A stretch of DNA of 64,000 nucleotides from a virus, in the IMG/VR virus record IMGVR_UViG_3300000318_000002, positions 20,814 through 84,813 of that record; one strand, given 5' to 3'. Each line of letters starts with the position of its first letter. Positions within the stretch are counted from its first letter, which is position 1. A program made the translations under genes and the position numbers. This document shows positions 22,078 to 45,659 of this stretch, piece by piece. The notes under the pieces are model-generated. The model was given only the letters and a program-made list of their open reading frames with translations. It did not search any database and was not told the DNA's origin.

Positions 22078-22415
22078 AATTTGAAAAGGCACTAGAATTG
22101 GTTAATGTACAATTAAAAAAATCATATCCGTTCTTTAAAGGTGTTGATGAACAAGATGGAAAAGCAATGATTATGATTTGGAATATGTTTGCACTTGTAA
22201 AAAAAAATAAGCTTGACGATTTAGTTTTAATAGCTAAGAACGGAACAGATATAATTTCTATCCCAATTCCCGATGAATTGGAAGACGAAAAAACGTTCAA
22301 TGAGGCTGATGAACAAATAAATGAGTCATCCAAACCGAAGAAAGCAACAAAGAAAGATGCAAAAGGCGCAAAGCCCGATGTCATCTCCGCAACCTCAACA
22401 GAACCAAATAGCTGA
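22074..22415 (+). CDS. hypothetical protein
   Basis: 113-aa ORF, AAGGAG RBS. Confidence 0.6.
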   Translation: MKFEKALELVNVQLKKSYPFFKGVDEQDGKAMIMIWNMFALVKKNKLDDLVLIAKNGTDIISIPIPDELEDEKTFNEADEQINESSKPKKATKKDAKGAKPDVISATSTEPNS

Positions 22416-24030
22416 TACCTACAATAGAGCTTATAAAGAAGGAAGAGCCGCTGTCAAAGAACTTGAAAAGCGGCTCTCTCTTTCTGTTCCTTCCGGCGTA
22501 AAATACGATCAACTCAATAATATCTCTTATAACAATGTTGTTTATCAACGTGATAAAATCCCAGATAGAATCCTTAAAATGGTTGAGCGTCGGAATCCGG
22601 TTGTTGCCGCTGGAATAACGCTCCGGATACAGCAAGCTCTTGAATATTCTAACATTTCCCATGATAAAGATGTTCCCGGTTGGGAATTTGTCCCGCGTGA
22701 TGAGAAACAACAAATGACGCCCAAAATGGAAAAGCAGAAACTTTTCCTTGAATACCTTCTAGAAAAAGGTCATTCTTCTGATTATACGTCATTTGATGGT
22801 GTTGATGAACCTTCTTATTTCCGTGAAAGAATTACTCAATATGTTCGTGATCGAATAACTATTGATAAAGTATGCTGGGAGATTGAACGCGATCTCAAGG
22901 GACGTGCTATAGCACTATGGACTCTCGACGGTGCTACAGTGTTCCCTGTACTTCCTGGCGGGTTTTGGGGTTCGTGTTCGATGATTACCGCTGGGATGGG
23001 AGGGGGTTATACAGAACTTGCCGAAAAGATCCGTCAAGCCCGTCTGACAAATGTTCCTCCAGTCGAAAAAATAGCATTTGTTCAAGAACTTCTTTATGGC
23101 ATGAGTGGCGGCGGGATTGCTGCGGCTTTCACAAATAAAGACATGATTTATGATATTTCAAATGACCTTAATGATGTTCGTTATTATAAACAAGGGTTTT
23201 CAGTTATTGAAAAAGCGAATATTGCCATAACTGCTTTTATCAATTCCCTTTCCTATAATTCAAACGGTCTTTCCCGTGGTGCTATTCCAAAAGTAGCAAT
23301 TTCTATGGGCAAGGAAAGCGGTTACACCGAAGAACAACTTGAAGATCTTCAAGACGAATGGATGGCAAATTTTGAAGGTGTAGATTCTCAATGGAATATT
23401 CCGCTTCTTAATGGGGATGCAAAAGTTCTTAATCTTTTGCCGTCAAATCGTGATATGGAATATCAATCGTACCTTGAATTTACAGGTGCATTAACTTTTG
23501 CCTGTATGGGTATAGATCCTACTGAATGCGGGTTACGATTTAATCAAGCAACTCAGATTATGTCAGAGAACAGCGATGGGAAACAAAAGTTTTCTAAGAA
23601 TCGCGGTCTTGCCGAAATGCTGACCTCTTTTGCGTATACGACAAATAGATTCCTTGAACTCAGTGGATATGATTTTGCAAAAGACTGGAATTTCCGTTTT
23701 AACGGATTATCTTTTGAGGATAAAGGTTTTGAGGCTGATCTTAGAGAAAAGGCAATAAGAACAGATACTACAATTAATGAAAGTCGCATAAAACGCGGTG
23801 ACAAACCGATCAAATATGGTGATATTATTGCGAACCCTCAATTTATTCAATATATAATGAATAAAGAACAACAAGAACAGCAAGGTCAAGATCAAAGTGA
23901 TAATCAAAATGATTTTGGTAGTGATGATACCGAAGATGATGATCTTGATTCAACCGTTGATGATGCAATGAATGAAGCTTTAGGAAGTGATTCATCTCAA
24001 AAAATGGAAAAAGCGTTTAGATTAATATAA
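22321..24030 (+). CDS. portal protein
   Basis: 569 aa; WEIERD..G..IALWTLDGATV, GFSVIE, W.IPLL, NRDMEY, IDPTECG, SKNRGL, TINESR...GDII.NP resemble SPO1/herelle-type portals. Confidence 0.9.
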   Translation: MSHPNRRKQQRKMQKAQSPMSSPQPQQNQIADTYNRAYKEGRAAVKELEKRLSLSVPSGVKYDQLNNISYNNVVYQRDKIPDRILKMVERRNPVVAAGITLRIQQALEYSNISHDKDVPGWEFVPRDEKQQMTPKMEKQKLFLEYLLEKGHSSDYTSFDGVDEPSYFRERITQYVRDRITIDKVCWEIERDLKGRAIALWTLDGATVFPVLPGGFWGSCSMITAGMGGGYTELAEKIRQARLTNVPPVEKIAFVQELLYGMSGGGIAAAFTNKDMIYDISNDLNDVRYYKQGFSVIEKANIAITAFINSLSYNSNGLSRGAIPKVAISMGKESGYTEEQLEDLQDEWMANFEGVDSQWNIPLLNGDAKVLNLLPSNRDMEYQSYLEFTGALTFACMGIDPTECGLRFNQATQIMSENSDGKQKFSKNRGLAEMLTSFAYTTNRFLELSGYDFAKDWNFRFNGLSFEDKGFEADLREKAIRTDTTINESRIKRGDKPIKYGDIIANPQFIQYIMNKEQQEQQGQDQSDNQNDFGSDDTEDDDLDSTVDDAMNEALGSDSSQKMEKAFRLI

Positions 24031-26929: not shown

Positions 26930-28342
26930 ATGAAAAAAACCGTTAAACAGGTTGAGCAAAAAGAATATCAAGAAGTTAAATACATACGTGAGCTGACCGA
27001 ATATTGGTCGGCTTACGTTTCTTCGGTTATCAATGAAATATTTGTTGGTATAGGAACAACTCTTGGTATTTCTGAAAACGAAGCATATAAACTAATAAAA
27101 AATGATCCGTCAAAACTTGAGAAAGCTGGATTCTTTAAAAGCATATTTGAAAAGTTTAAAAATATTTTTAAGTATCGTGTTAAAAAATTCAGACCAAAGG
27201 TAAAACTATTTAATAAAGATGGATCAGTTATTGATGAAAAAAGATGGCAAAAAGTTCAGGACGATATCCATGATTTTTGGGTAAAACAAACTCAAAAAAA
27301 TTCAGAGGATATGACTCTAAAAGGTTTTATTCTTGGCAAGAAAACAAGTAAATATAGAGAAGAAAAGAAGAAGAACTTTGAGAATAAATCTTTTGAACAG
27401 ATAGATGAAGAAGAATATAAGAATAAAATGCCGTCGCGGATTGAAGAAATATATGCAGATTTAAAACCGTCTGAACGCCGGACTATGAATAAAGCCTTGT
27501 CACGTGTAGCAATGCACGTAGCAGACGTTGAAAATAAAGTAAAAAGCTCAATACGAAAGAATGTAGTGCAAGGTCTTAATGCCGGTAAAAGCCCAACGCA
27601 AATAGCGTCTGACCTTTACTGGAATGTTCAGGGAGGATCTAAACAATCAGCAGACGTATTGAGACGCGATTGGAATAGGATTGCTGAAACAGAGGTTCAA
27701 AGCATTTATGAAGCCGGTATTCTTGCGCCTCATGAAGAAGAGGCAAGGGAATCAATAGAAAATCCAGAAAAAGCACAATATTTTGTTTATACAGGCGGAA
27801 CTTGTAAGTGGTGTAAATCCCAACAAGGGACTATTGTCAGGTTACTTCCGGAAGACGTTATAAGAGATAAAAATAATGACAGTCTTTCGTCAATGGGTAT
27901 TGATGATTATTTTACAGATATCGCTGTTTGGATTGGTAAAAATAATGTCGGACGGTATTCGTATAAAGATCCTTACTGGCAAATCTGTACACCTGCTCAT
28001 CCGCACGGGGTAGCTACGTTACATCCTATAGATTTTGAAAAAGAATTTTACAATGAAAATACGGGACGAGTAGAAGCCAAATTGACGCAGTATTCAGGAA
28101 TACCAAAGAAAAAAGATTTTGAGTTTACACCGGAAGAAATAGAAAATAGAAAGCCTCATTTTGTCGGCAATAACAGAGTGATGTTTAATGATAATTTGTA
28201 TGAAAGAGTATCTCCTGATGAATATAAATCATCTTTAAAACGCTGGAATGATAACCCTAATCTTCCGATTCCCGTATCGGCAGGGACTACAAGTGATAGA
28301 CAAATTTTTGAAGCTGCGGAGAAAAATAGAAATGATTCTTGA
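26930..28342 (+). CDS. head morphogenesis protein (MuF / SPP1 gp7-like)
   Basis: IASDLY...RDWNRIAETE, CKWC, and PAHPHG (equivalent of HPxCRC). Confidence 0.75.
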   Translation: MKKTVKQVEQKEYQEVKYIRELTEYWSAYVSSVINEIFVGIGTTLGISENEAYKLIKNDPSKLEKAGFFKSIFEKFKNIFKYRVKKFRPKVKLFNKDGSVIDEKRWQKVQDDIHDFWVKQTQKNSEDMTLKGFILGKKTSKYREEKKKNFENKSFEQIDEEEYKNKMPSRIEEIYADLKPSERRTMNKALSRVAMHVADVENKVKSSIRKNVVQGLNAGKSPTQIASDLYWNVQGGSKQSADVLRRDWNRIAETEVQSIYEAGILAPHEEEARESIENPEKAQYFVYTGGTCKWCKSQQGTIVRLLPEDVIRDKNNDSLSSMGIDDYFTDIAVWIGKNNVGRYSYKDPYWQICTPAHPHGVATLHPIDFEKEFYNENTGRVEAKLTQYSGIPKKKDFEFTPEEIENRKPHFVGNNRVMFNDNLYERVSPDEYKSSLKRWNDNPNLPIPVSAGTTSDRQIFEAAEKNRNDS

Positions 28343-31034: not shown

Positions 31035-31059
31035 AATATTATCCTTTTTTATTAAAATG

Positions 31060-31218: not shown

Positions 31219-31524
31219 TTAATGAGTTGCATGGGGAATCTCCTTATAAATTTTATTAAGTTCTTTGACAATTTGATTGTATCCATGATTTTTAATCCTA
31301 AATACAAAATCACTCATCTCTTCCCCTATATTAATACATTCTTTGTCGCGCGGATTTATACTGGAATATAAATCTTTTGAATATAATATTTGTGGATCAC
31401 GGATATCGAAATCCAATAAAAACCGGATATTATTCAATAATATATTAAAATCAGCACTTTGCTTACAATCATTTGCATCAATATATTTCATTTCCATCCA
31501 TTTCATAATATTATATTTCTCCAA
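31219..31524 (-). CDS. hypothetical protein
   Basis: ORF in the minus-strand cassette; start uncertain. Confidence 0.5.
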   Translation of the reverse strand: MEKYNIMKWMEMKYIDANDCKQSADFNILLNNIRFLLDFDIRDPQILYSKDLYSSINPRDKECINIGEEMSDFVFRIKNHGYNQIVKELNKIYKEIPHATH

Positions 31525-31989
31525 TTACCATTTAAAGTTTACTGATTTTAATTCTGGTAAATTCCTTACTTCTTTAGGAATAAACAATCCGTCCAAAAAC
31601 CAAAAATATATTTTAGAATCCATAGCAATGATAGCCTTTTTTCTTGATTCAATATAATTTGATTCTATTTCGGTAAGTGCCAAAATAGCTTCCGATAAAA
31701 TTTTTGATTGAGATAAGTTTTCAATTGATCCGGAAATCATTGTCCCTTGTTCCTTTTGTGGATAATAAGATTTTTGGATATCAATAATCCTTATACGTTG
31801 GTTTTGAATAGAATCATATTTTGCACTTAATCCCGAATAATCCCTTACTCCAGAACAAATTGTTATAAATAACAGTATACCAGTAAGTAAAGAAATTATG
31901 AACCAAGAAGCCGCATAATCTTCTTCTGATGATAAAATTGATTTAACAAACATAACAACAAACGCTATAAATAAAATTACATAAAACAT
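31525..31989 (-). CDS. membrane protein with coiled coil
   Basis: Two N-terminal TM helices; AAGGA RBS. Confidence 0.65.
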   Translation of the reverse strand: MFYVILFIAFVVMFVKSILSSEEDYAASWFIISLLTGILLFITICSGVRDYSGLSAKYDSIQNQRIRIIDIQKSYYPQKEQGTMISGSIENLSQSKILSEAILALTEIESNYIESRKKAIIAMDSKIYFWFLDGLFIPKEVRNLPELKSVNFKW

Positions 31990-32001
31990 AAATATCCTTC
32001 A

Positions 32002-32346
32002 TTATTTTATAAACATAAAATATATAGATCCGGCAATAAAAATAAAAAGCAATGACCAAAATGCTCTTTTATAAAAAGTATAAAAAGAATTTTTATCTAT
32101 TTCTTGACTAAGTAGTTCCCGTGTGCTGTTATGTATTATTTGAAGATCTCTTATTTCTCTATTACATACTTCAACCGCTTCTGCGATTATGGCATCTTCG
32201 GAAGAAAAAGCTTTAATTTCGTAAAAAAAGCTATAGTCCTTTCTTATTACTAAACTATAGGTATGTTCCTTTTTGTCAGCTTCTGCCGCTTTCTTTAAAA
32301 GTTCTTCATGATCTTCATACGATAAAATAACCTGTTTGTTGTCCAT
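32002..32346 (-). CDS. coiled-coil protein with C-terminal membrane anchor
   Basis: Start at MDNKQV after an AAGGAG RBS; C-terminal TM helix. Confidence 0.65.
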   Translation of the reverse strand: MDNKQVILSYEDHEELLKKAAEADKKEHTYSLVIRKDYSFFYEIKAFSSEDAIIAEAVEVCNREIRDLQIIHNSTRELLSQEIDKNSFYTFYKRAFWSLLFIFIAGSIYFMFIK

Positions 32347-32570
32347 TTTAAATTCTCCTTTTATTTTAGTAAAACTTCCGCCGGACTCTTTGCCGACTGT
32401 CATTGGTTCCACATTGTTACCAAAAACCGCCTTTTCCTTTCTCAGGTAGTCATACTCCGATATGATCGCCGCACGTTATGGAGTAATTACGTATCGTCAG
32501 CGTCCCGGTCTCGTTATTTACTGCACCAATTACCGAGCGTTTATCTGGATGTGCCTTCCAGAGAGCCATT

Positions 32571-32689
32571 TGAACGGGGCAGGATTCGAACCTGCATGGC
32601 ATGTTTATGGGAGACCTCTTTTACACATACCTTACTGCTGTTAGTACCGCCCACAGACTATTAGCGTCTACCAATTCCGCCACCCGTTC
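32571..32689 (-). ncRNA. 119-nt tRNA-like RNA: Leu-type body, non-canonical anticodon arm, oversized variable arm
   Basis: Acceptor GAACGGG/CCCGTTC + A, D arm GGCGGAATTGGTAGACGC, T arm GCAGG-TTCGAAT-CCTGC; about 68 nt between D and T arms. Confidence 0.75.
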
Positions 32690-32831: not shown

Positions 32832-35800
32832 ATGAACAAGTCTCAAATAAAAGCACTTATCAGGAAAAATATTAAGATAGATAATCTTGAAAAATCAAAA
32901 GAAATGTTAAAAAATCAATATAATATATCCTTTGGGAGATATGAACCAGAAGAAATCAGGCAATCTCTTATAAAGGGACTACCGGTTCTCGTACAGGATC
33001 ATTTTATTATAGGAATGGACGAAGCAAAACAAAACACTTTTGAGGATACCGACGGAAAAGTTTTTAGTATAGATGTCCCTGTAAAAGCAATTATTGTAAA
33101 TGATGAAATAGATCAGGACGATATTGATGCCTCAACAGATAATTTTGCAATCATCGGACGCAATGAATGGAAAACGCCGATTAATGAATTTGATAATATT
33201 ATTGCACCGCTTAGAAATGGGAAACCTTTTCTTCCGAAAACTCCTGTTATTTTTAATTTTCTTAATCTTACAGATGAAATAAAAAAAACAGATATTGTTT
33301 CTAAAACTGTTGGAGCGCAAATTTATCTTTATGATAAAGACGGATACATCGATAATGCTTTTCACGAGATAGGTCATATCTTTTGGAGAACCCGATTGAC
33401 CTATGACGAGCAAGAATTATTCCAGGAAATCTTTGATAGTGGAAAACTTTCGAGTGCCATTTATGAATACGAATGGGAAAAGAAATCAGCAGAAGAAATT
33501 TTCTGTACAGTTTATAAATGGTATTTAAAATCAATTCTGATAAATACATCTTTCCGTAAAATTCTTTCTTTTGAAGAACCAGACGGATATGATCTTATGG
33601 TTTCAATTGTTCAGCGTATTGGAGAAGACAATATCAGGTCGGATGTTTGGGAAAGTGTAGAAGACAAGGTTAGAGAATACCTAAATCCTCGATATGATAC
33701 AACGACAAATAGTTTTATCCGTAAACGTGGTGATTTTGATGCTATCAAAGATGTCGAAATACCTTCAGAACTTTTGGAAGATATTTCTTCAGTTCAAGAT
33801 GGAATAAAATATGTTAATCTATTTAAAGGTAAAAATCCTGTTCCCGTAAAAGAATATTCTATTGATTTTGTAAGGGCAACCGAAGATTTTACTAAAAAAC
33901 TTGAGAAGTCGCGTCCGATTATCCCCGCTGGGAAAGAAGTTTTGTACATGGATATGGACGGAGTTATCGCAGATATAGGAACAGGATATAAAGAGTTGTC
34001 CGGACGTAATATCTTTAAAGATGATACTTTTACTGTTCGACAGACGATAGGTTTGATCCCTCATTTTTGGCGTAAATTGCCCGTCCTTCCCAAAGGGAAA
34101 GAGCTTTACGATATGCTCAAAGATTATTACGCTATTATATTTCTGACAACTCCGATGGATTCTATAGATTCTTGTAAGATGGATAAAATAGCATGGGCGA
34201 AGCAGTATTTCCCTGAAGTTAAAACAATTCTATTCAGTGATAAAAAAGAAGAATACGCAGCGTCAAATAAAAGCGTATTGATAGATGACTATGGTAAAAA
34301 CGTAAAAGCATTTAATGATGCCGGAGGAAGTGCTATAAATTTCAAAGAAAAAAATACCGAAATAGTATCGCAGATAAAAGAAATATTTAATCCTAAAGAT
34401 GAAATTGCTGAAATAAAAGAGCAATTAAAATCTATGCAAGTTGATCCTTCCCCGTTCGAAGCACAAAAGAAAACGGGAAATTATAAAAAGGGTAAAATAT
34501 TATTCAAAGGGCTTTCTCTTATAATCGAAAATCCGAAAGGATCTATCCGTTTTGGTCGCGGATCTGACGGTAAGCGTTGGATGAATATTATGAAGGCACA
34601 CTACGGATATATTGATACAAAGCCAGGAGAAGAAGGTGCTGATGGCGATAAAATAGATTTCTTTCTTGGTGAAAATTTATCAACAAATAAAGTGTTTGCC
34701 ATAAATCAGGTGTGTCCGGAAACGGGGATGTTTGACGAAATCAAGTTGGTTATGGGTTGTAATACCGCCGAAGAAGCAGAAAAGCTATATCGATCATGTT
34801 ATTCTAAAAACTGGACCGGATTTGGTTCAATAGTCCAGACGAATACAAAGGGCATACGAGAATACATCCAAAACGGGTATAGATATGAACCTTTTGGGGA
34901 TAATTTTATAGAGCAAGAACCGCTACAAAAAGCAACATTTTTAGAAATGCTAAAAGCCAGAATTACAAAATATGTAAGACGTGAACCAGACGGTAAAGGC
35001 GGATGGAAGTATTTTTATAAAAACAATATAAAGAATAATACAATCCAAAATCAGGAAGAACATAAAGATAGAAAAATATCTCAAACCGAAACTCCTGAAT
35101 TTAAAAAGTGGTTTGGGGATTCAAAAGTTGTAGATAAAAATGGTAAACCCTTAATCGTTTATCACGGAACAACGGCTTCAAATATTAAAGAATTTAAACC
35201 TGAGAGATTACACGGACGAAATGGAATTTATTTTACAGATAAACAGGAAGAAGCCCAATTATATGGGTCAAATATAATAAAAGTCTATGTAAAAATGGAA
35301 AATCCCAAAATTTTTGATGCTGAAGGTAAATCTTTCAATGATATTTTTGACAAAATTGAGCCACTATTAAGATTCTTAGGCAAGTTTGAGAATGATGGTA
35401 TAATTATAAAAAATGTATATGATTCCCCTTCCGGGAAGAAGGAGGGGCGAAAATCTACAACATTTATTGTAGATGATGCTTCACAAATAAAATCAGCAAC
35501 AAATAATAATGGTAATTTTGATCCGAATGAATCTGATATGACAAAAGCACACGATTCTTTTGATATTTCAGATAAAGAAATTGTACAATCCTTGGATCAA
35601 ATAAAAAAAGAAATAACCGTCAACCATGATTTTGATATTCCTTATTTATGCGGATACAGCAAAGACGCTAAAACAATTTACATCGATAGACATCTTCCAA
35701 AGATGAAAACACGTGGACATTTTGATTCTGATGATGCTCTGATAATGCACGAAGCTACTGAAAAGGCAATGGAGAAAACATATCATCTGGAATATGCCAA

Positions 35801-36008
35801 AGCTCACCAGATCGCATTACGTGCCGAAAAAGCATATGTAGAATCTCAAGGTATTTCATGGAAAGGTTATAATTCCTTTATGCAAAAGTACATTAAGAAA
35901 GCTGGAGATGAGAGACTTACGGAAACTCCTAAAAATCTGGATTTGCAACCATATCGTAATTGTCATGATTATTCCGAGTTGACAAAAATTTCAAAGGTGC
36001 AAAAGTAA
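32832..36008 (+). CDS. polyvalent multidomain protein 1: HExxH peptidase, HAD 5'(3')-nucleotidase, pyrophosphatase-like, ART-like, HExxE domain
   Basis: FHEIGH; YMDMDGVIAD..LIDDYGKN; GNYKKG..IENPKGS.R..HYGYI..GADGD.ID; TPEFKKWFGDSKVVD.NGKPL.VYHGT..QIKSA.NNGNFD; IMHEATE. Confidence 0.8.
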   Translation: MNKSQIKALIRKNIKIDNLEKSKEMLKNQYNISFGRYEPEEIRQSLIKGLPVLVQDHFIIGMDEAKQNTFEDTDGKVFSIDVPVKAIIVNDEIDQDDIDASTDNFAIIGRNEWKTPINEFDNIIAPLRNGKPFLPKTPVIFNFLNLTDEIKKTDIVSKTVGAQIYLYDKDGYIDNAFHEIGHIFWRTRLTYDEQELFQEIFDSGKLSSAIYEYEWEKKSAEEIFCTVYKWYLKSILINTSFRKILSFEEPDGYDLMVSIVQRIGEDNIRSDVWESVEDKVREYLNPRYDTTTNSFIRKRGDFDAIKDVEIPSELLEDISSVQDGIKYVNLFKGKNPVPVKEYSIDFVRATEDFTKKLEKSRPIIPAGKEVLYMDMDGVIADIGTGYKELSGRNIFKDDTFTVRQTIGLIPHFWRKLPVLPKGKELYDMLKDYYAIIFLTTPMDSIDSCKMDKIAWAKQYFPEVKTILFSDKKEEYAASNKSVLIDDYGKNVKAFNDAGGSAINFKEKNTEIVSQIKEIFNPKDEIAEIKEQLKSMQVDPSPFEAQKKTGNYKKGKILFKGLSLIIENPKGSIRFGRGSDGKRWMNIMKAHYGYIDTKPGEEGADGDKIDFFLGENLSTNKVFAINQVCPETGMFDEIKLVMGCNTAEEAEKLYRSCYSKNWTGFGSIVQTNTKGIREYIQNGYRYEPFGDNFIEQEPLQKATFLEMLKARITKYVRREPDGKGGWKYFYKNNIKNNTIQNQEEHKDRKISQTETPEFKKWFGDSKVVDKNGKPLIVYHGTTASNIKEFKPERLHGRNGIYFTDKQEEAQLYGSNIIKVYVKMENPKIFDAEGKSFNDIFDKIEPLLRFLGKFENDGIIIKNVYDSPSGKKEGRKSTTFIVDDASQIKSATNNNGNFDPNESDMTKAHDSFDISDKEIVQSLDQIKKEITVNHDFDIPYLCGYSKDAKTIYIDRHLPKMKTRGHFDSDDALIMHEATEKAMEKTYHLEYAKAHQIALRAEKAYVESQGISWKGYNSFMQKYIKKAGDERLTETPKNLDLQPYRNCHDYSELTKISKVQK

Positions 36009-36032
36009 ATTTGTAAAAGGACGTAGTATCAC

Positions 36033-39000
36033 ATGAAAAACCCTCTCTTTTCCTCTTTCTCTCCTCAACAATTAAGATTTGCTATAGAGTATGAAATGCG
36101 ATTCCGAGATGATCCTAAAATCGCGTCAGATATCGCAATCGGGCGTTTAACGGAAAACCCAAAATATTATGATCAGTTTGCAAAGATGGAGAAAGCTCGT
36201 ATTACAAAATATGTAAGACGTGAACCCGACGGTAAAGGCGGGTGGAAATATTTTTATAAAAATAATGTAAAAAAAGAATCAAAGGAAATAGTTGAAGGTA
36301 CTTCTGAATGGGCGGAAAGAATGTTTATTAATAAAGAAATACCAGAGGGATGGTACGTTCATGGAAGAAGTAGAGGACATAATGAGGATTTGACTACAGG
36401 AGCAGTGACCCAATGTACTAAAAGATGGGATGTTGCAGAACATTATGGTCGGTCAGGTTCGATGTTCCTTATTCATCCAGATAAAAATGCAAAAGTATTA
36501 GATCTTTCATCATCAAATACTAAAGATATGGATATGGTTGTAAATCTTTTTACTAATCAATATGTAAAAGATATAATGCCAGATGAAATACAGGAATTAT
36601 TTATTCCTTTAGATATGAAAAATGAATTAACTATAGAAGAAAAAAAAGAACATATTGAAAAAGTAGTAAGAAAAGAATTTTCTCCTAAAGATATCGTGAA
36701 TTCGGCTGAAGCTTATGACAGTTTAGAGTTAATGGATTATTTTGATAGATTAAATATAGCAGATTTTGTAATAACTCCTGATGGTGCGGTGATAACTGGA
36801 GATTTGGATAAAATAAAAAAAGTAAAAATCCCGAATCATCAGCTGTTAGAGAAAGCCAATCAATTATCTATCGGAACGAAAATAGAATCAGAACATAAAG
36901 AGACAGTTGATTTTATCCGTTCTTATGTTAAAAAAAATGGGAAGATGCCTCTTGATAAGGAAATATATAAACATATTTCGATGAATCATACTGAAAAAGA
37001 AATGAAAGATTATTATACTCGATTGATTCAAATGGAGAAACAAGCCAAAAAAGATAAAAAGCGTCCTCAGATTGAAATAGATGTTATAAAATTTCTTATA
37101 GATAATCCAAACCCTCCTGATTCAAAAATACATGCTTTTGCAGAGAGCAAAAGTCTTGATCCTTCAAAACTTGAAACAGTAGTCTATCGGATAGCAACCG
37201 AAAGAGCAAAGATGAGTACAGATATGTTTAAAGCCCGTATCGTCAAATATATCCGAAAAGAACGAATGAAAGACGGTAAGTTCAAATATTATTACGCAGA
37301 CGGTACGCACTCGACAACCGAAAAAGAAAAACCCTTTAATGTCGTAGAAGCTTTTAAAAATTTCTTTGGTCTATCTGATGAGAAGATTGCAAAAGAAAAG
37401 ATTAAAAAAGACTATTACGAACATAAAATTTCAGCAAAATATAATTTATCTTTACTCGGTTGGGCAGATCATCTTTCAGAATATTTTATTCATAAAGATA
37501 AATGGGACAGTAAGTTTTCAAATAAAACTCCCGAAACAAAAGCGGATGATGCCAAAAAGGATACAAATGCCGAAAAGAAGGCTTCTACACCTTCTGAAAA
37601 GCCTAAGTTTAATACCAACGCAATGAAAGAAATTTATGATCTTTATAATAAAAAGGCTGAAGAACCTATAAAAGAAACCGCCAAAGAGTCAGAGGCTATT
37701 GTCGAGCCTGTTAAAGAAACATCGGAACAAAAAGCAAAAGATATTCAAATATCAACTGCGATAAATACTGTAACTCCTGAAAACAGAAATGAAAAAGAAA
37801 ATGAAATCCTTAATATCCCTGAACTAACAGAACCAGAAAAAGAAAATATAATAGAGCCAACGGTTGAATTTGTTCCTGATTATGAAGTAGTCTCTATCCC
37901 TGGATTAATAGTTGAAGGTAAAAATAACAGTCAACATTTATTAAAAAGTTATTTAAAAGTAAAGCCGAAAGATATTTTACTACAAAATGAAAAAACTATT
38001 CTTACCAAAGAAAAACCATCATATATTCCTGAAGTTGATGAAAAATTTCTTAAAGGAGCAGGATTTGTTATTCCAACATACAAACTTGAAACTGACAAAT
38101 ATTTAATTCAGACTAATGCAAAACGGAAAGTATGGACAGAAGATAAAAAATGGCATATCGCAGGTGAAGATACTTATATTATAGTGAATAGAGATGTTCT
38201 TGCAGCAACTTATGATTATTTTATCAAGAAAGCCAAGATGTTAAAGAAAGAAGAAACAAAAAAAAGACAAGAAAAATATCCTGATTATAAAGTTACAGCA
38301 GAAAGAATTACAGTTTTAACCGATAAGAAAATGTCGTATGATCAACAACGAGTATTTTCTTATTTCATTCGGAATGTAACGGGTTTTTCTGGCGGTGGTT
38401 CAAAGTTCATGTGGGAAAAATATAAAGAAATAAGAGAAGATATTGCTCAAAAAACATCGGATATGGAAATACAGCTTGAAGATTATTATAATGCTCATGC
38501 GAAAGGAAGAGAAACTTCATATGGAGATAAAGGAACAAATGATTCTCTTCTAAGCACTTTGGGAGTAAAAGTAAAAAGACAAAATGGCGCGGAGATTACA
38601 TCAAAAGAAATAACCGAAATAAAAGATGCTGTTGATGACGTATTCTCTGTTTTTGGGAATAGATCTTCTATGGCTAAAAATTTTGGGTTGAAAATATCTC
38701 ATGCTGGGGATAAGAATATGCACGCTCGGAACGCAGCAGGGATATTTATACCCTCTCTTAAGGTAATCGGCGTAACAACTCAATATGGAAATGGAACGAC
38801 TGGATTTGTTCTTGCTCATGAATGGTCTCATTTTATGGATTTTTATGTTGGTGAAAAAAATGACAGACATTATATTTCCGATAATCCGAACCATGTTGCA
38901 GGCGAAATAGCAGATACGTTTAGAAAAAACATGAAAAAACAACAAAAATCTGCATACTATAATCGTACTTGTGAATGTTTCGCAAGAGCATTGGAGCAAT

Positions 39001-39236
39001 ATTGGGCTATTAAAACAAACAGTACAGATATACTTCAAAGATGGGATAGTTTAGGGACACATCCCGAAGAAAATATTTTTAAAGAAAAGGTAATGCCACT
39101 CATTGATAGATTTTTATCTGAAAATGACCAATTACTCAAAGCTTTTTTCAACGATAATTTCAATAAAAATAAAAATATCTTGATTAAATCTTTTGATCGT
39201 GTAAAAGGTGTATTTGTTTACAGGAGAATGAAATAA
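36033..39236 (+). CDS. polyvalent multidomain protein 2: DUF5661-like x2, possible ART-like domain, C-terminal LPD1-like zincin peptidase
   Basis: L.ENPKYY and DYYTRL motifs; WYVHG..AEHYG; LAHEWSHFMD...ECFARALEQY. Confidence 0.7.
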   Translation: MKNPLFSSFSPQQLRFAIEYEMRFRDDPKIASDIAIGRLTENPKYYDQFAKMEKARITKYVRREPDGKGGWKYFYKNNVKKESKEIVEGTSEWAERMFINKEIPEGWYVHGRSRGHNEDLTTGAVTQCTKRWDVAEHYGRSGSMFLIHPDKNAKVLDLSSSNTKDMDMVVNLFTNQYVKDIMPDEIQELFIPLDMKNELTIEEKKEHIEKVVRKEFSPKDIVNSAEAYDSLELMDYFDRLNIADFVITPDGAVITGDLDKIKKVKIPNHQLLEKANQLSIGTKIESEHKETVDFIRSYVKKNGKMPLDKEIYKHISMNHTEKEMKDYYTRLIQMEKQAKKDKKRPQIEIDVIKFLIDNPNPPDSKIHAFAESKSLDPSKLETVVYRIATERAKMSTDMFKARIVKYIRKERMKDGKFKYYYADGTHSTTEKEKPFNVVEAFKNFFGLSDEKIAKEKIKKDYYEHKISAKYNLSLLGWADHLSEYFIHKDKWDSKFSNKTPETKADDAKKDTNAEKKASTPSEKPKFNTNAMKEIYDLYNKKAEEPIKETAKESEAIVEPVKETSEQKAKDIQISTAINTVTPENRNEKENEILNIPELTEPEKENIIEPTVEFVPDYEVVSIPGLIVEGKNNSQHLLKSYLKVKPKDILLQNEKTILTKEKPSYIPEVDEKFLKGAGFVIPTYKLETDKYLIQTNAKRKVWTEDKKWHIAGEDTYIIVNRDVLAATYDYFIKKAKMLKKEETKKRQEKYPDYKVTAERITVLTDKKMSYDQQRVFSYFIRNVTGFSGGGSKFMWEKYKEIREDIAQKTSDMEIQLEDYYNAHAKGRETSYGDKGTNDSLLSTLGVKVKRQNGAEITSKEITEIKDAVDDVFSVFGNRSSMAKNFGLKISHAGDKNMHARNAAGIFIPSLKVIGVTTQYGNGTTGFVLAHEWSHFMDFYVGEKNDRHYISDNPNHVAGEIADTFRKNMKKQQKSAYYNRTCECFARALEQYWAIKTNSTDILQRWDSLGTHPEENIFKEKVMPLIDRFLSENDQLLKAFFNDNFNKNKNILIKSFDRVKGVFVYRRMK

Positions 39237-42200
39237 ATGAAAAAATCCCTACTGAAAATTAAAGATAAATTTTTCATTAATATGGAAAAAGCTATTCCCG
39301 AATCAACATATGAACATTCTGATAAACTTGGAGAAGGGGCTAAAAAAAGAAAAAAACTACATTTAAATAAAGATAAATTTGACGCAGTTATGCATGAATT
39401 TAAACGTGGGACATTACGTTCTGGGTCAGGTGAACATGTAAAAGATCATAATCAAGCGGTTGCGATAGCAATGCATGAAAGTGGAATGGCGAAAGCAGAA
39501 TCTCCCGAAGTCCAGGCGAAGATTAAGAAAGTTATGGACGAATTTAAAGCTGGAAAACTAAAATCAAGTAGCGGACAAATAGTAACTGATCGGAATCAGG
39601 CTTTGGCTATCGCATATTCATATTTTAAGAAGGCAGATAACTCGATGACAAAAGCAAATGAATGTTCTTTTCTTGATGATGTCTATGCGGCAAAAGAAAA
39701 TACCCTTATACCTTCAGATATAGATGTTTATCAACTCGCTATGGGAATACAAGTAGAGTTCGGGGAACATACAAATGATATCCAGATTGCAATGCAAATA
39801 GCAATGGATCATCTTGAGGAAAATCCGGTATATTATACTAAATTGCAAGAATCAGGGCTTGTAGATGAAGTGTTGTTACATACCTATGAAATATCAAATA
39901 TTCTCCGTGGAGCATTACCATTTAATGCAGGGTTAGAGCCTATGGAGAAGGCAAGGATTACGAAATATGTAAGACGAGTTCCGAAGCCATCGGGAAAAGG
40001 TTATATTTATTTCTATAATAAAGCCGAATACGAACATTATAAAAAAACAGGAGAACTTCCAACAAAGCAAAAGTCTATTTTCTCTAAAATTATATCATTC
40101 TTTGGTCTTGGATCTGATAAAGAAGCCAAAGAAAAAATTGATAAAATGTATGAAAGCCATAAGACAGTTTTGACAGGTGTTGGGAAAGATGCTTTCACCG
40201 ATCATGTCATAGAATATATAACAAACAAAGAAAAATGGGACAAAAAACTTTCAGCACCAAAAGCAGAGCGCAAAGAGTCAAAAGAAGGTGCTAAAAAAGA
40301 ACCTACAGAAAAGAAAAAAGTAGTTAAGAAAGAAGGAAAGAAATTTAATATTTCTGTAATGCGTGTTGTTGCGGGGATAGTTAATGAGAAGGAAAATAAA
40401 AAACAAAATGCAGGATCAAAAGATAAAGACAACTTTGAGACTATGCCGAAAGATGAAAAGAAATGGTATGAAAATATATTAGAAAAAATAGAAAATATTA
40501 CCAATGAAGATGATAAAAGTGGATTAAAGGAATGGATATCTGATTGGACTAATACTAAAGGATCTGTTCGTAAATCGTTGGCAAAAGATATTGAAGATAA
40601 ATTGTCTAATATTCAAGGCAAAGAAGAAAAAAATAAATTAAAAGAAAATTTGTCTAACTCACGATTGAAAAAATTTGAAGATTCAGGGAAAGAAGCTTTT
40701 GAAACCACCAAGAAAGATTGGGTAGAGATGCAACGAGAAGAGCGGCGAATTATGGGGCAAAATGAAGGTAATGGGAATCCGAATGCTCCTTATTCTGATT
40801 ACGAAAACTATCATAATGATTCTGTAAGACGTGCTATTGAAGAAGGTAAAACGGTTTCTCCTGAAGTGTTGAAGGATTATCCTGAATTAAAAAAAGACAA
40901 TAGCATAATCAAAGAAATTGATAAAGTCAAAGATGAGATAAAAAAACAAATAAATACAGAAGAAGATATCGAAGATGAAGAAACTAAACTTCAAAAAGAA
41001 TCAGATGAACATTTGAAACAAAAACCCGAAAAGGTAGAAAGACCTTCCGTTCTTGATAAGGGCGGAGATAATTTCTGGAATGGAAAAATTTATGGTAATG
41101 AAAAATATGGTTTCAATATATATTTAAACAATGAAAAGGAAGTTATTCCTAAAAGTGTAGCCCAAAAATTAGAGCAATATGTTGAATATCGTCAAAAATT
41201 AAAGTCATGGAAAGAAAAACAAGAAACTATTGATAATAAACAACTTAAATTTAAAAATAAAAATGAACAACTACAACAAATAATTGATAAGCCGATAGAA
41301 CATATTAAGAAAATAGCTGAAGATAACTTTTTAACACAAGTTGATGGGATGTTTGTTAGTACTGATTATACGGGTGCAAAAACAATTATTGTTGATGATG
41401 TAAAAGAACAAAAACTTATAGATCGTATGAAAGAATGGACTCCTAAAGATTTTAAAGAAATGTTAAAGGAGAGAATAGGAACAATTACAAAAGAAAGCAG
41501 TAAAAAAGAAAATGAAGTTAATACTGTATTAAATAAAACTATAAATGATAGTATTGATAACGAGTTTGTAGAACATCTTAAAAATATTGTTAAAAATCGT
41601 TTAATCGAATTGAAAGCAGAATCGCTCAAACAAAATAAAGATAAAGAGGAACAAGATAAAAAGAATAAACTTATACAAGAAAAAATTAATGAAGCTGAAA
41701 AGAAATATATCCCAGAAGGCTATTGGAATGGTAAAGTTTATGGACGTCATGGTAACTACAATATTTATGTAGATAATAAAAAAAGAGCTATAAACGATAA
41801 TGTTGCTTTGGAGCTTATGGGGGGCGAAAAAAAATCAATGTCAAAAGCCGAAGAACTTGAAGATATGTTAAAAGCCAAAAAAGCAATCACCGGGGAAGTA
41901 CATACCTATAAAAACGGCAAGAAATATCGTAAAGAAGGCGATAAATGGGTACTCGTAACAAGTGGTAAGAACAAAGTCAAAGGGAAACCGGAAGAGAAAA
42001 ATAAAAAGAAAAAATCTAAAACTGGAGGAAAAAATAAAATATCTAAAGAAGATCGGAGTTTAATAAAAAATACTCTGAAACGAGTAGCTTCGGTAATTGC
42101 AGAAGCTCTTGCTGGTAAAAATCCCAATGCTCAAGCCGCACAGGGGATCGAACATACAGGAGAAGATTTAAAATCAAGTAGTCATAAAGGCTTAACAGAA

Positions 42201-42242
42201 AAACAAGTTGACAAAAATAATAATAATAACAATAAAAAATAG
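39237..42242 (+). CDS. polyvalent multidomain protein 3: DUF6496-like x2, DUF5661-like, repeated WNGK.YG domain
   Basis: VMHEFKRGTLRSGSG..QAVAIA and VMDEFKAGKLKSSSG..QALAIA; GIQVE..EHTND..IAMDHLEENPVYYTKL; two WNGK[IV]YG units. Confidence 0.7.
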   Translation: MKKSLLKIKDKFFINMEKAIPESTYEHSDKLGEGAKKRKKLHLNKDKFDAVMHEFKRGTLRSGSGEHVKDHNQAVAIAMHESGMAKAESPEVQAKIKKVMDEFKAGKLKSSSGQIVTDRNQALAIAYSYFKKADNSMTKANECSFLDDVYAAKENTLIPSDIDVYQLAMGIQVEFGEHTNDIQIAMQIAMDHLEENPVYYTKLQESGLVDEVLLHTYEISNILRGALPFNAGLEPMEKARITKYVRRVPKPSGKGYIYFYNKAEYEHYKKTGELPTKQKSIFSKIISFFGLGSDKEAKEKIDKMYESHKTVLTGVGKDAFTDHVIEYITNKEKWDKKLSAPKAERKESKEGAKKEPTEKKKVVKKEGKKFNISVMRVVAGIVNEKENKKQNAGSKDKDNFETMPKDEKKWYENILEKIENITNEDDKSGLKEWISDWTNTKGSVRKSLAKDIEDKLSNIQGKEEKNKLKENLSNSRLKKFEDSGKEAFETTKKDWVEMQREERRIMGQNEGNGNPNAPYSDYENYHNDSVRRAIEEGKTVSPEVLKDYPELKKDNSIIKEIDKVKDEIKKQINTEEDIEDEETKLQKESDEHLKQKPEKVERPSVLDKGGDNFWNGKIYGNEKYGFNIYLNNEKEVIPKSVAQKLEQYVEYRQKLKSWKEKQETIDNKQLKFKNKNEQLQQIIDKPIEHIKKIAEDNFLTQVDGMFVSTDYTGAKTIIVDDVKEQKLIDRMKEWTPKDFKEMLKERIGTITKESSKKENEVNTVLNKTINDSIDNEFVEHLKNIVKNRLIELKAESLKQNKDKEEQDKKNKLIQEKINEAEKKYIPEGYWNGKVYGRHGNYNIYVDNKKRAINDNVALELMGGEKKSMSKAEELEDMLKAKKAITGEVHTYKNGKKYRKEGDKWVLVTSGKNKVKGKPEEKNKKKKSKTGGKNKISKEDRSLIKNTLKRVASVIAEALAGKNPNAQAAQGIEHTGEDLKSSSHKGLTEKQVDKNNNNNNKK

Positions 42243-42269
42243 GACAAGGATAAAAAGGAATAATCCAAA

Positions 42270-42452
42270 ATGCACATTGTAATTGATAATCCGGTAATGT
42301 CAAAGTGTTCTTGTGGAAGCGTATATAAGGTTTCCAACCCTGATGAAGAAGTTATAAAAAATGTCAGGGCGGTATACGTTGATAAAAAGGCAAATTTGAG
42401 AAAAATACTTTGCCGTAAGTGTAAAACTTGGATAGAAGAAAAAATTTCTTGA
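42270..42452 (+). CDS. small zinc-finger protein
   Basis: KCSCG...LCRKCK. Confidence 0.65.
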   Translation: MHIVIDNPVMSKCSCGSVYKVSNPDEEVIKNVRAVYVDKKANLRKILCRKCKTWIEEKIS

Positions 42453-42533
42453 CATTCTTCTAAATGAGTTTTTATTGAAACTGCTATTGAAAGTCCGTTA
42501 AAGGAATAAGCATGAATACTAACGAAGGTATAA

Positions 42534-43406
42534 ATGTTATTCCGCGTAAACGGGTTTTACATCTCGAATCTACAGAAAGCAAAAGACGATAAACTCGTTA
42601 CTGTTGATATAATCGCAAATCATCTTACCGAAGACCAAGATAATGAAGTCGTTCTCAAAGAAGCCTTTGACGATGATACGGTCAAAGAATTTCTCGATAT
42701 CGGCGTTATCGAATTTTGGCATGAATCAAAAAACGAACTTCTTACCAAAAAAGAAAAAAATGATAATCTTATAGGTCGCCCCGTAGCTTTTCGTTGGGAA
42801 AATGGGCTTCCGGTTGTTACTGCGACACTTTCAAAAACTCATCCTATCGTACAGTCAATGATGCCTCATCTTGAATCGCAAAATCCTGTATACGCCGCTT
42901 CAATAGGCGGTTCTAAAGTCGTACTCGAAGCAAAAGATAATTCGGGTGAAATACATAAAATAATCCCCAAAATACGTTGGGATCATCTTGCTATAGCTCC
43001 TCAAAATATGGTCGTGAACCGTGAACCTGGAATAAATGTCAAGATGCTTGAAAAAGCAAAATCTATATATAATTTTAGCAATTTTACTACTCTTGCAAAA
43101 GCTCTTGAAGCCCCCGGTTCGGTAGACGCTCTTTATTCAACTCCCGGCGGTGCTATTACCAAACAATCTCTTGAAAAAAGTATTTCCGTTCAAGGTTTTT
43201 CGGAATCCGAAGCGGATCTTTTACTTGATACTATACTTAAATATGCAAACGGAGAAATGCCGACAGATAAAGTTGGTTATTTTGCTCTGTTTCCAAACAA
43301 TGAAGAATTTGCCGATAAGTCGTATCGGCTGTTCGATAACCATTTTAAAAAAGGAGAATTCGTAAATGAAGTTTTCAAAAGAAGAACTTCTTGCCAAAGG
43401 TATTGA
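42534..43406 (+). CDS. prohead protease
   Basis: A.....DQDNEVV, G.I.F.H, IGRP, ASIGG (catalytic Ser context), HLAIAP..VN; upstream of scaffold and capsid. Confidence 0.8.
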   Translation: MLFRVNGFYISNLQKAKDDKLVTVDIIANHLTEDQDNEVVLKEAFDDDTVKEFLDIGVIEFWHESKNELLTKKEKNDNLIGRPVAFRWENGLPVVTATLSKTHPIVQSMMPHLESQNPVYAASIGGSKVVLEAKDNSGEIHKIIPKIRWDHLAIAPQNMVVNREPGINVKMLEKAKSIYNFSNFTTLAKALEAPGSVDALYSTPGGAITKQSLEKSISVQGFSESEADLLLDTILKYANGEMPTDKVGYFALFPNNEEFADKSYRLFDNHFKKGEFVNEVFKRRTSCQRY

Positions 43407-44154
43407 TCCGATTGTCGCTGATGAAATAATCGCGTCATATGACCGTACCGATGACGGAACTCCCCTGTCTAAGCTTGAAAAAGCTTTGAAGCCGAAAAAG
43501 AAAAATGACGAACAGTCGCTTTTTAAGGCTGAAAAAGGGGAAAAAGAAGGGGACGCAGAAGATGATGCAGAACCAGATGATGATGAAGATGACAAAGAAA
43601 AGTTTATGAAAAAGAACAAAAAGGCAATGAAAAAAGCCGAAGAAGAAGACGAAGATGAGGAAGACGAAAAAGAAATGAAAAAAGCATTTGATTCGATTGA
43701 TAGAACTGCTCCTGGTGCTGTTGTAGAAATGGAAGATCTTGCTCCGTCTCTTTCTGCTATCCATAAAAGCTTTTCTTCACTACTTAAAGCGGTAAATGAC
43801 CTTTCAAATCGTGTTGATACTATTGTTTCTCAAAATGAAGAATCTTATAGTCTCATGCACAAAGCCGCAGAACTTCAGGTCGAAACTTCAAAAGGTCTTT
43901 CAAGTGTTCTGTCTATTCCGGCTGGACGTAAAGGCGTAACTGCTTCCGTCAATATGGAAAAAGCTCAGGGCATAAATACTGATCTTGCTAACCGCGCACT
44001 TGTTTATCAGGTACTCGCTAAAGCAGTTAAGCTCAAAGATCCTATCGGCGGTGCTATTGCAGAGCGTTATGAAAGTGCTGGTCACGATATTCGCGCTCTC
44101 AGTAAAGATGACCGCGCAGGGATCGCAAAACTTATTCAGGAGAATAATAAATAA
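43366..44154 (+). CDS. capsid scaffold protein
   Basis: Acidic coiled-coil protein between protease and capsid, with eight [LM]xKA sites. Confidence 0.75.
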   Translation: MKFSKEELLAKGIDPIVADEIIASYDRTDDGTPLSKLEKALKPKKKNDEQSLFKAEKGEKEGDAEDDAEPDDDEDDKEKFMKKNKKAMKKAEEEDEDEEDEKEMKKAFDSIDRTAPGAVVEMEDLAPSLSAIHKSFSSLLKAVNDLSNRVDTIVSQNEESYSLMHKAAELQVETSKGLSSVLSIPAGRKGVTASVNMEKAQGINTDLANRALVYQVLAKAVKLKDPIGGAIAERYESAGHDIRALSKDDRAGIAKLIQENNK

Positions 44155-45659
44155 TGGACGAAGAACTTTTCCCACTCACCGACAGCTCGATGGGATCTGA
44201 ACAGATGGGACAGTTTCAGGAGCTTCTGAAAGCTCTTGCAGCTCCTGGATCTGTTGACGATCTCTACGGTACGCCTGGCGGTGCTATTACTCAACAGTCA
44301 CTCGAACTGATGCTTGCAAATCTTACCTTGAAACCGACGGATATGACTTTCTGGCAGGATATTGTTAAGATCAAAGCATTTTCAACCGTTGAAGAATACA
44401 ATCAGCTTATTGGTTCTGGTATTAGCGATGGCGGATTCGTGGATGCAATGGAAAATCCGGAATTTTCCGATCCTGATATCCTCAAACAGATAGCAATTGT
44501 AAAATTCATGTCTGAAGGTTGGAAGGTTGGTGATGTACAGGAGCAAACCCGTACAACTGTAGCTTCCCGTGCGCTTTCTCAGAAAGCGGCGATGACTCGT
44601 CTCCTCCGTAACGTAAACCGTGCTCTGTATTCTGGAAATTCACTCTGGATTCCGGAATCAATTGACGGTCTTTCCGCTACTATCTCCGGATCAAGCTCAA
44701 GTCAGGTATTTGACCTTCGTGGCGCGTCTCTGACTATGGCGGCGCTGAATCTTGCCGGTCAACTTATTACCGAAGGCAATGGGAATGTTGAAAATTCAAA
44801 TCTGTACCTTTCCCCTGCTGGAGTACAGAATCTTTCAACGATCATAGAATCTACCGGAGATGCAACAAATAACCGTAAATTTGTGCCAATGGGTGATGGG
44901 AACATTACTATCGGCGGTAAAATATCAGACATTATGACCAATTATGGGAAGATAAAAACTCGTATGGACAAAGTTCTTGGTCTTGAATATGAAGCAAACG
45001 GCGTTCCTAAGATTTTCAATAACAAGACTAAAACTTGGTACGAAGGTCCTACTTCTGAATTTGCTCCCTCTGCTCCTACTATTGCTCTTACGAATCAGGG
45101 AACTATTGCAAATTCTCAGTATTCCGCAACAGGGACTCGTCCTTCTGGTGTAAAAGCTCGCTATCGTGTTTCTGCTCGTAATCGTTATGGTCGTTCAATT
45201 GCTTGCGCTCTTGTTGAGTCTACTTCGGTTGTAGCTTCCGGAGGTGGTATTGATATCGCTATTACTCCTGTTTCTACAGATACTGGGAAACGTACGCCTT
45301 CTTGTTTCGTGATCTATGGCGAACAGGTATATAATTCTGGAGAATTCCGTTATCTCGATACGATTGCGGTTGATACTACCAATCCATATGCAGTTGTTAC
45401 CTATCATGAAAAGAATTCATACATCCCCGGTACTGCTCGCATGTTCATTGTTGACCAGACTTCTGCCGGAGAAGATCGTTCCCTTGCTTTTGCGCAACTT
45501 GCGCCAATTCATAATACCGATCTTTCCAAAGAAAACCGTTCAACTCGTGGTCTCATCAATCTTTATGGAACGATGAAATACTATAAACCTCAGGTTCTTG
45601 TTGAAATCCGTAACATCGCTGTTACTCAGGCAAACATTAATCTGTACAACAATAACTAA
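44154..45659 (+). CDS. major capsid protein
   Basis: 501 aa; LLKAL..G......GGAIT.QSLE..L..LT....TFW.DI.K..A.STVEEY..., resembling SPO1/herelle-type capsids. Confidence 0.93.
   Translation: MDEELFPLTDSSMGSEQMGQFQELLKALAAPGSVDDLYGTPGGAITQQSLELMLANLTLKPTDMTFWQDIVKIKAFSTVEEYNQLIGSGISDGGFVDAMENPEFSDPDILKQIAIVKFMSEGWKVGDVQEQTRTTVASRALSQKAAMTRLLRNVNRALYSGNSLWIPESIDGLSATISGSSSSQVFDLRGASLTMAALNLAGQLITEGNGNVENSNLYLSPAGVQNLSTIIESTGDATNNRKFVPMGDGNITIGGKISDIMTNYGKIKTRMDKVLGLEYEANGVPKIFNNKTKTWYEGPTSEFAPSAPTIALTNQGTIANSQYSATGTRPSGVKARYRVSARNRYGRSIACALVESTSVVASGGGIDIAITPVSTDTGKRTPSCFVIYGEQVYNSGEFRYLDTIAVDTTNPYAVVTYHEKNSYIPGTARMFIVDQTSAGEDRSLAFAQLAPIHNTDLSKENRSTRGLINLYGTMKYYKPQVLVEIRNIAVTQANINLYNNN

Follow-up and report, generated by a model that had tools for sequence, protein, structure and literature searches.

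Predicted prohead-protease sites between the modules of polyvalent proteins in the head-gene region of an uncultured myovirus

The head module and its recurrent motif

The IMG/VR virus record IMGVR_UViG_3300000318_000002 is a single-contig genome of 84.8 kb from a phage known solely from metagenomes. The 64,000-nucleotide stretch analysed here (bases 20814-84813 of the genome; henceforth the window, in whose numbering positions are given) carries the head genes of this phage, an uncultured myovirus of 85 kb whose capsid protein is of the SPO1/phi812 type. The genes of this head module run in the order terminase, portal, MuF-like protein, P1-P3, protease, scaffold, capsid, and neck, sheath and tail, where P1-P3 are three genes of about 1000 codons each that lie directly upstream of the protease, scaffold and capsid genes. 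All three are on the forward strand and encode candidate cargo proteins of the head: the polyvalent protein P1 (32832..36008; 1058 amino acids, aa), P2 (36033..39236; 1067 aa) and P3 (39237..42242; 1001 aa). A preliminary description of the window had proposed that they are polyproteins with domains bounded by the motif [LM]-x-K-[AS], which are loaded into the prohead, cut by the maturation protease and injected with the DNA. The motif occurrences that it reported in the scaffold, capsid, protease, portal, MuF-like protein and P1-P3 were all recovered at the same positions; its list of sites had overlooked LEKS19 of P1 and LLKS636 and LIKS1050 of P2.

For the motif statistics, 116 open reading frames (ORFs) were called genome-wide, matches at Met1 were ignored, and the expectation was corrected for the composition of each protein. 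The core head set of six genes (P1, P2, P3, protease, scaffold and capsid) contains 30 occurrences of [LM]xK[AS] against 5.2 expected, while the remaining 110 ORFs contain 23 against 21.2. To avoid post-hoc selection of a pattern, we scored all three-residue patterns with six spacings in the head set. This unbiased scan placed MxKA first (14 observed, 0.65 expected, p = 1.5e-14) and LxKA second (10 observed, 1.73 expected). Eleven control motifs, in which Lys was changed to Arg or Glu, the first position to Ile/Val or an aromatic residue, or the P1' position to other residues, or in which the spacing was shifted or the order reversed, reached at most 2.5-fold in the head set and gave no comparable contrast between the head genes and the rest.

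A search of IMG/VR with the protease (as a 9-member alignment) recovered 19 related loci, with protease identities of 49-60% plus a distant clade at 31-34%; a few of them are near-duplicates. In these loci the motif is in excess in the cargo genes upstream of the protease (170 observed/56.1 expected), in the protease itself (86/8.3) and in the scaffold plus capsid (128/17.7), as against the downstream neck and tail genes (24/31.7), and the contrast between these gene groups is present in each clade. The concentration of the motif in head genes that the preliminary description anticipated is thus borne out, both in the genome and in its relatives. The scaffold and P3 are Lys-rich and helical, and L-x-x-A would suit the a/d spacing of heptads; nevertheless, an artefact of composition or helix periodicity in Lys/Ala/Leu-rich proteins has next to no probability and can be set aside, because the composition-corrected expectations are still exceeded, the reversed, shifted and K-to-R/E controls lack a comparable excess, and the motif comes first in the unbiased scan and is replicated across the 19 loci.

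The prohead protease and its probable cut site

The anchor for interpreting the motif is the major capsid protein (44154..45659, forward strand; 501 aa), which is of the SPO1/phi812 type (phrog_752, E = 1.3e-59; PDB 9vel, SPO1 gp6.1, 3e-27) and about 27-30% identical to the capsid proteins of Bacteroides DAC and Bacillus SPO1-like phages. It begins with a predicted propeptide of residues 1-26 (44154-44231, forward strand) that ends within the site LLK|A (aa 24-27, with K26 before the cut). This site aligns with VVK|S of the capsid protein of staphylococcal phage phi812 (5lii, 463 aa), the mature chain of which starts at Ser25 in 9row (439 aa); a Lys-Ser-like cleavage site had earlier been named for SPO1/A511-type capsids. 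SPO1 itself has LNK|A at the equivalent position of its capsid, five strict and eleven loose ([LIVM]xKS) matches in its scaffold gp3.3, and in its protease LDK|S, after which the capsid N-terminus is copied. Similarly, every capsid protein of the related loci has one L-x-K-A at residues 23-33. Given the mature end in phi812 and the layout in SPO1, cutting after the Lys of hydrophobic-x-Lys|Ser/Ala is a property of the protease family. By this homology, [LM]xK[AS] is very probably the cut site of the protease of the window phage.

The other structural head proteins carry the motif in comparable arrangements. The scaffolding protein (43366..44154, forward strand; 262 aa) has eight sites that would divide it into pieces of 15-43 aa, and the scaffolds of relatives have 6-8. 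In the portal protein (22321..24030, forward strand; 569 aa; PHROG portal families, E = 1.5e-25) the two sites are close to the ends, MQKA13 to the N-terminal one and MEKA562 seven residues short of the C-terminus. The MuF-like head morphogenesis protein (26930..28342, forward strand; 470 aa), assigned by a weak match to phrog_2468 (head morphogenesis), contains LEKA63 and MNKA186.

The prohead serine protease (42534..43406, forward strand; 290 aa) was characterised by AlphaFold2 (AF2), Foldseek and a family alignment. Its sequence had no match in the PDB, so that a fold search was needed, and none in Pfam, where Peptidase_S78, S78_2, S80 and U9 are the families in question; weak S78/S78_2 matches appeared in 3 of 49 relatives. 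The AF2 model has a mean predicted local distance difference test (pLDDT) score of 82.6, with a core (residues 16-174) at 95-98 and a well-folded C-terminal helical domain (216-290). Its best Foldseek matches are the herpesvirus assemblins and T4 gp21 (probability 0.97-1.00), the latter (5jbl) with a probability of 1.00 and a template-modelling (TM) score of 0.53 normalised to the target. Judged by this modelled fold, the protease is a member of the assemblin/gp21 fold class that belongs to no curated sequence family. A HMMER search over 1.8 billion proteins returned 57 cluster representatives of the family, and in the 49 that were aligned K15, D34, H63, G81, S123, G125, A153 and K189 are invariant. 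Ser123 is embedded in an ASxGG motif, and His63 and Ser123 are the putative catalytic pair.

The motif sites of the protease (LQKA13, LEKA172, LAKA187 and LEKS213) predict cuts after K15, K174, K189 and K215. All four are outside the core, in segments modelled with low confidence, and they separate the core from the C-terminal domain, a layout that fits self-trimming like that of SPN3US gp245. Between them lies a segment that mimics the capsid protein: residues 181-214 of the protease (43074..43175, forward strand) are identical to capsid residues 18-51 (44205-44306) at 24 of 34 positions (71%, E = 2e-11 in BLASTP). The copied stretch comprises the cut site and the mature N-terminus of the capsid, and a site lies on either side of it. 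All of the protease family has kept the copy, the SPO1 protease among them (LDK|SLEAG...), and a profile of the family matches the N-terminus of SPO1 gp6.1 in PDB 9vel. This segment may dock the protease into the prohead in the manner of a capsid N-arm or, alternatively, may be a built-in substrate.

Sites at the module borders of the candidate cargo proteins

P1, P2 and P3 contain multiple unrelated domains, including ART-PolyVal, InPase and a weakly matched LPD1, as is characteristic of polyvalent proteins, and their position among late genes for portal, MuF-like and capsid proteins is the typical setting of such proteins in phages. In P1, which was delineated with Pfam, AF2 and its homologues, Pfam detects InPase (2.5e-42), ART-PolyVal (2.7e-21) and NT5C, and the model matches deoxyribonucleotidases in Foldseek. 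Its sites are LEKS19 (32886), LEKS357 (33900), LQKA698/MLKA706 (34923-34958) and MTKA903 (35538). The predicted pieces are a leader (residues 1-21), a domain with an HExxH motif (22-359), a HAD nucleotidase plus InPase (360-700), a spacer (701-708), a short element termed the KY tag (see below) followed by ART-PolyVal (709-905), and a C-terminal domain (906-1058). No site is present at the junction between the HAD and pyrophosphatase domains, as had been observed before.

For P1, an AlphaFold model based on 28 homologues has high confidence over residues 1-690. Segments of at least three residues with pLDDT below 50 are found at 96-100, 356-362 and 598-605 and next at 693-719, so that the sites at 357-360 and 698-709 coincide with such linkers between modelled domains; residues 730-964, which include the site at 903, are poorly modelled. 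The junction site at K359, before the HAD domain, is kept in 26 of 28 homologues, as compared with a mean column identity of 32%, and the leader site in 19 of 27. In the domain upstream of this junction the sequence HEIGH (aa 178-182, 33363-33377) is at least 90% conserved in the 28 homologues, and the domain bears a weak structural resemblance to zincins of the anthrax lethal factor type. A second HExxH sequence, HEWSH, is found in residues 639-1036 of P2, which have weak matches to Peptidase_M91 and LPD1. It is likely that these two domains are zincin-like metallopeptidase domains.

P2, which was delineated with Pfam and the motif positions, as was P3, has sites after residues 54, 274, 400, 638, 1036 and 1052, including those starting at 36186, 36846, 37224 and 39132, and the further ones LLKS636 (37938) and LIKS1050 (39180). 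It contains a DUF5661, two KY-tagged modules and the HExxH/LPD1-like module, and lacks a short N-terminal leader ending in the motif. When the predicted fragments were searched one by one against Pfam at E <= 1, the only additions were weak matches to LPD1, Peptidase_M91 and DUF5661. P3, with six internal sites, is predicted to yield a leader (residues 1-18), two DUF6496 domains (19-86 and 87-139), a DUF5661 (140-238), a KY-tagged Lys/Glu-rich region (239-870), a spacer and a basic tail (880-1001). The DUF6496 and DUF5661 envelopes in P3 stop shortly upstream of the sites, of which 16, 236, 868 and 877 are shared with homologues of about 25% identity.

None of the sites falls inside any Pfam envelope of the cargo proteins. 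They lie 2-10 residues outside the envelopes of HAD, both DUF6496 domains, the N-terminal DUF5661 of P2 and ART, about 18 residues past that of InPase, and about 30 residues past that of the DUF5661 of P3. Further, the borders of BLAST alignments among 55 cargo proteins were compared with 1000 permutations: internal alignment starts fall near the motif in 58 cases against 19.3 by chance (0/1000 permutations), 18 of them exactly at its first residue, and alignment ends in 33 cases against 14.1. Individual rearrangements illustrate this pattern. The orthologue of P1 in the related locus L003 stops short of the P1 site at 698 by 12 residues, and in L004 the module that follows in P1 is encoded by a gene of its own, where it is preceded by a 19-residue leader that ends in LEK|A. 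Likewise, the module of P2 residues 275-400 recurs in L004 between MEKA78 and MQKA203, and the N-terminal site of P3 is an internal junction at residue 221 of a longer protein in L003. The Pfam envelopes, the linkers of the P1 model, the BLAST borders and the conservation of K359 agree with one another in supporting the earlier proposal that the sites mark domain borders. At junctions the sites are often paired at a distance of 8-12 residues, as in LQKA...MLKA of P1 (34923-34958) and MSKA...MLKA of P3 (41838-41876) and also in the loci L001-L004; cutting at both would free a short spacer peptide.

The KY tag, defined by the pattern ARxxKYxxR...G...Y.Y, is an element of about 22 residues that begins four predicted fragments with differing downstream domains (34956..35024, 36195-36263, 37233-37301 and 39951-40019, all on the forward strand). 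Considering the window and related loci together, 12 of 12 copies directly follow [LM]xK. A pattern search of the best 120 of 143 stand-alone ART-PolyVal proteins from other elements found none, and hence no tag placed after a protease motif of another kind; this indicates that the tag is an add-on. It may be a label for retention or delivery. The N-terminal leaders that end in the motif comprise residues 1-21 of P1 and 1-18 of P3, and are of 8-22 residues in the cargo of relatives. In the distant clade (L018-L020) the cargo proteins are of 700-1100 aa, with leaders of 8-22 residues mostly ending in LLK|A, and in many a further site precedes the C-terminus by 11-30 residues, suggesting that both ends are trimmed.

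Elsewhere in the window the large terminase is encoded at 15302-16732. A reverse-strand block of small ORFs (29164-32412) splits the head module between the MuF-like region and P1, and includes a tRNA-Gln(ttg) at 31059-31132. This was the only tRNA that ARAGORN reported in the window; a tRNA-Leu-like element that had earlier been placed at 32571-32689 was not detected by it. The unbiased pattern scan also recorded a strong excess of the triplets PNM, PDN, LPD, SLP and DNM in the non-head proteins, suggesting that one of the proteins of the genome contains numerous S-L-P-D-N-M-like repeats.

A proposed prohead-processed arsenal and its alternatives

Taken together, these observations are best read as a prohead-protease substrate set of the T4/phiKZ style, widened to polyvalent proteins. 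Direct support comes from the enrichment of the motif, the conservation of the sites, their position at module borders, the fold of the protease, and the homology that anchors the capsid cut. As the modules of P1-P3 are joined by the most likely cutting signal of the capsid protease and their genes adjoin the capsid genes, these proteins are probably loaded into the head and split, and on balance we favour the view that they are head cargo cut at least at some of their internal sites. That the products are then injected as separate effectors is a somewhat less secure proposition, with a chance a little short of even. Of the polyprotein hypothesis in the preliminary description, what stands on observation is that the motif fits the cutting rule of the family, is common to the capsid N-terminus, scaffold, protease and P1-P3, and is placed at module borders; packaging, cleavage and injection are what we infer from this.

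In the mechanism that we propose, the protease most likely cuts after the Lys in [Leu/Met]-x-Lys|[Ala/Ser]. It would remove the 26-residue capsid propeptide, chop the scaffold into pieces of 15-43 residues, trim the portal, and trim itself such that the core is freed from the capsid-mimicking linker and the C-terminal domain. P1-P3 would be incorporated into the prohead, with a predicted targeting role for the short leaders of P1 and P3, which resemble the capsid-targeting sequences of T4 or phage P1. They would then be cut into about 15 separate products, including a zincin-like domain, the HAD nucleotidase with the pyrophosphatase, an ADP-ribosyltransferase, and the DUF6496 and DUF5661 domains, that would leave the head along with the DNA.

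Several points weigh against this reading. The phage is known from sequence alone, and the cuts are predicted. Motif matches conserved in the P1 homologues also occur at positions 42, 65, 81 and about 322, inside the modelled N-terminal domain. In a crude test, the 12-residue flanks of 151 matches were no less hydrophobic than the background (0.31 vs 0.31); hence not every match is an obvious linker, and the matches need not all be cut sites. Four of the cargo sites are each followed by a copy of the same tag and hence do not count as independent cases; the motif there could belong to the tag. Finally, 13 of the 14 mapped cuts in SPN3US remove N-terminal propeptides rather than splitting domains (PMC10052503), the remaining one releasing the C-terminal propeptide of the protease itself (PMC10052503), and both P1 and P2 carry conserved HExxH domains that might cut in place of the prohead protease.

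The SPN3US cuts favour the main rival, which is that processing is confined to the termini: only leaders and short C-terminal tails would be removed, the internal sites being mostly buried or unused, and the proteins would remain multi-domain in the virion, like DarB of phage P1 or the N4 vRNAP. The outcome of the flank test and the clustering of cargo sites in L018-L020 at 8-22 residues from the N-terminus and 11-30 from the C-terminus point in the same direction. However, terminal trimming does not account for the retention of an internal junction, K359 of P1, in nearly all homologues, for the location of internal P1 sites in low-confidence linkers of the model, for their coincidence with the borders of shuffled modules, or for the recurrence of paired junction sites. 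We therefore regard it as unlikely, though it deserves more weight than the alternatives that follow.

A second explanation is that in the cargo the motif does not mark a cut but is a conserved element of junctions or tags, for instance the beginning of the KY tag or what is left of a gene fusion. The two are indeed inseparable wherever the tag occurs, and P1 and P3 themselves begin with M-x-K-S. Against this, an M-x-K-[AS] start is seen in only 3 of the 116 proteins, and the capsid propeptide, scaffold and protease bear the same motif without a KY tag. Moreover, a Shine-Dalgarno-like sequence precedes just 2 of 33 internal sites, and where the motif begins with Leu the codon is CTT, CTA or TTA, which are non-start codons, with one TTG as the exception; internal translation starts and fusion relics are thereby ruled out. 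The explanation as a whole is improbable.

Of slightly lower probability still is the possibility that the embedded zincin-like domains (P1 22-359 with HEIGH, and P2 639-1036 with HEWSH) process the polyproteins, whereas the prohead protease cuts only the capsid and scaffold. The strong conservation of the P1 HExxH, the weak Peptidase_M91 and LPD1 matches in P2, and the processing model of Iyer et al. 2017 (PMC5512222) agree with it. Yet the junction motif is identical to that of the capsid propeptide, scaffold and protease, including those of SPO1, where the head region examined has no such polyvalent protein, and a second protease of equal specificity would be less economical.

Processing of the cargo by the prohead protease, as preferred here, has counterparts in several known systems. 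The prohead proteases of T4, phiKZ, 201phi2-1 and SPN3US cut ejected head proteins at a short motif (PMC10052503), and N-terminal capsid-targeting sequences are described for T4 and phage P1 (PMC10052503, PMC9024508). In T4 (gp21, acting on IPI-III, Alt, gp22 and gp23), phiKZ (gp175) and SPN3US (gp245) an assemblin-fold protease cuts the capsid, scaffold, portal, itself and ejected proteins at one motif, and the same set of substrates is predicted here. The cargo of the window phage shares the motif of the capsid propeptide and scaffold, as does that of the T4 IP/Alt, phiKZ and SPN3US type, and like T4, the Alt protein of which is an ADP-ribosyltransferase, it includes an ART. Two differences are apparent. 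The motif is L/M-x-K|A/S, in contrast to the L/I-x-E or A-x-E of the T4/phiKZ/SPN3US type, and the substrates are, by prediction from sequence, multi-domain proteins with sites between modules in addition to any that follow an N-terminal propeptide.

The Herelleviridae (SPO1 gp3.2/gp3.3/gp6.1; phi812/K capsid) offer a parallel for the machinery itself, with homologous capsid and protease, the aligned Lys cut, a motif-rich scaffold and the copy of the capsid N-terminus in the protease. The window genome is of 85 kb, with a capsid protein that by tblastn is only about 27-28% identical to the SPO1 type, and while the portal, protease, scaffold and capsid genes of SPO1 are adjacent without polyvalent cargo genes between them, the window phage has P1-P3 in this place. 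In the Dar system of phage P1, large polyvalent anti-restriction proteins (DarB, DdrB and others) are loaded into the head via an N-terminal targeting sequence of up to 30 residues (PMC9024508), to which the short leaders seen here are similar. DarB is, however, treated as one protein of 250 kDa, the capsid protein is cut after Glu120, and no common junction motif is described (PMC9024508).

Packaging of phage polyvalent proteins into the capsid, and their delivery along with the DNA, was predicted by Iyer et al. 2017 (PMC5512222). These authors further proposed processing to single units by embedded peptidases (MPTase), drew the analogy to polyproteins, and pointed out that some polyvalent proteins have an assemblin-like peptidase domain at the C-terminal end (PMC5512222). 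Like P1-P3, the proteins that they described combine unrelated effector domains (ART-PolyVal, InPase, HAD, zincin-like and LPD1) in one polypeptide, encoded beside portal, MuF and capsid genes; unlike their model of embedded peptidases, a separate prohead protease is implicated here through the shared motif at the borders of exchangeable modules. A full-text search of the phage literature on prohead proteases and polyproteins returned only their paper and an unrelated genome report. The novelty that the preliminary description supposed consequently does not extend to the packaging and processing of polyvalent proteins; what is new is the predicted role of the capsid protease, acting in trans at a shared motif between their exchangeable modules. 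As the packaging and processing of polyvalent proteins have been predicted, and the prohead cutting of T4, phiKZ and SPN3US has been described, our finding joins two known ideas.

If confirmed, it would give the capsid-maturation protease a second role, the processing of a polyprotein-like set of injected enzymes, and would connect T4/phiKZ prohead proteolysis with the polyvalent proteins described by Iyer et al., two fields that have been separate. Head-cargo proteins and their mature ends could then be predicted by a simple sequence rule, and it would be explained how phages exchange effector modules while delivery is preserved. The same arrangement would supply a design rule, consisting of leader, site and tag, for loading foreign proteins into phage heads. 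Speculatively, and with rather long odds, the cargo may be written in a cassette grammar of the form [protease site]-[KY tag]-[enzyme], wherein tagged enzymes would be freed in the head by a protease recruited via its copy of the capsid arm, and the tag, retained on them, would serve as an address that either keeps them on the DNA or core or directs them through the portal and tail. If true, this grammar would represent a general, rewritable system for the loading and delivery of proteins by phage heads.

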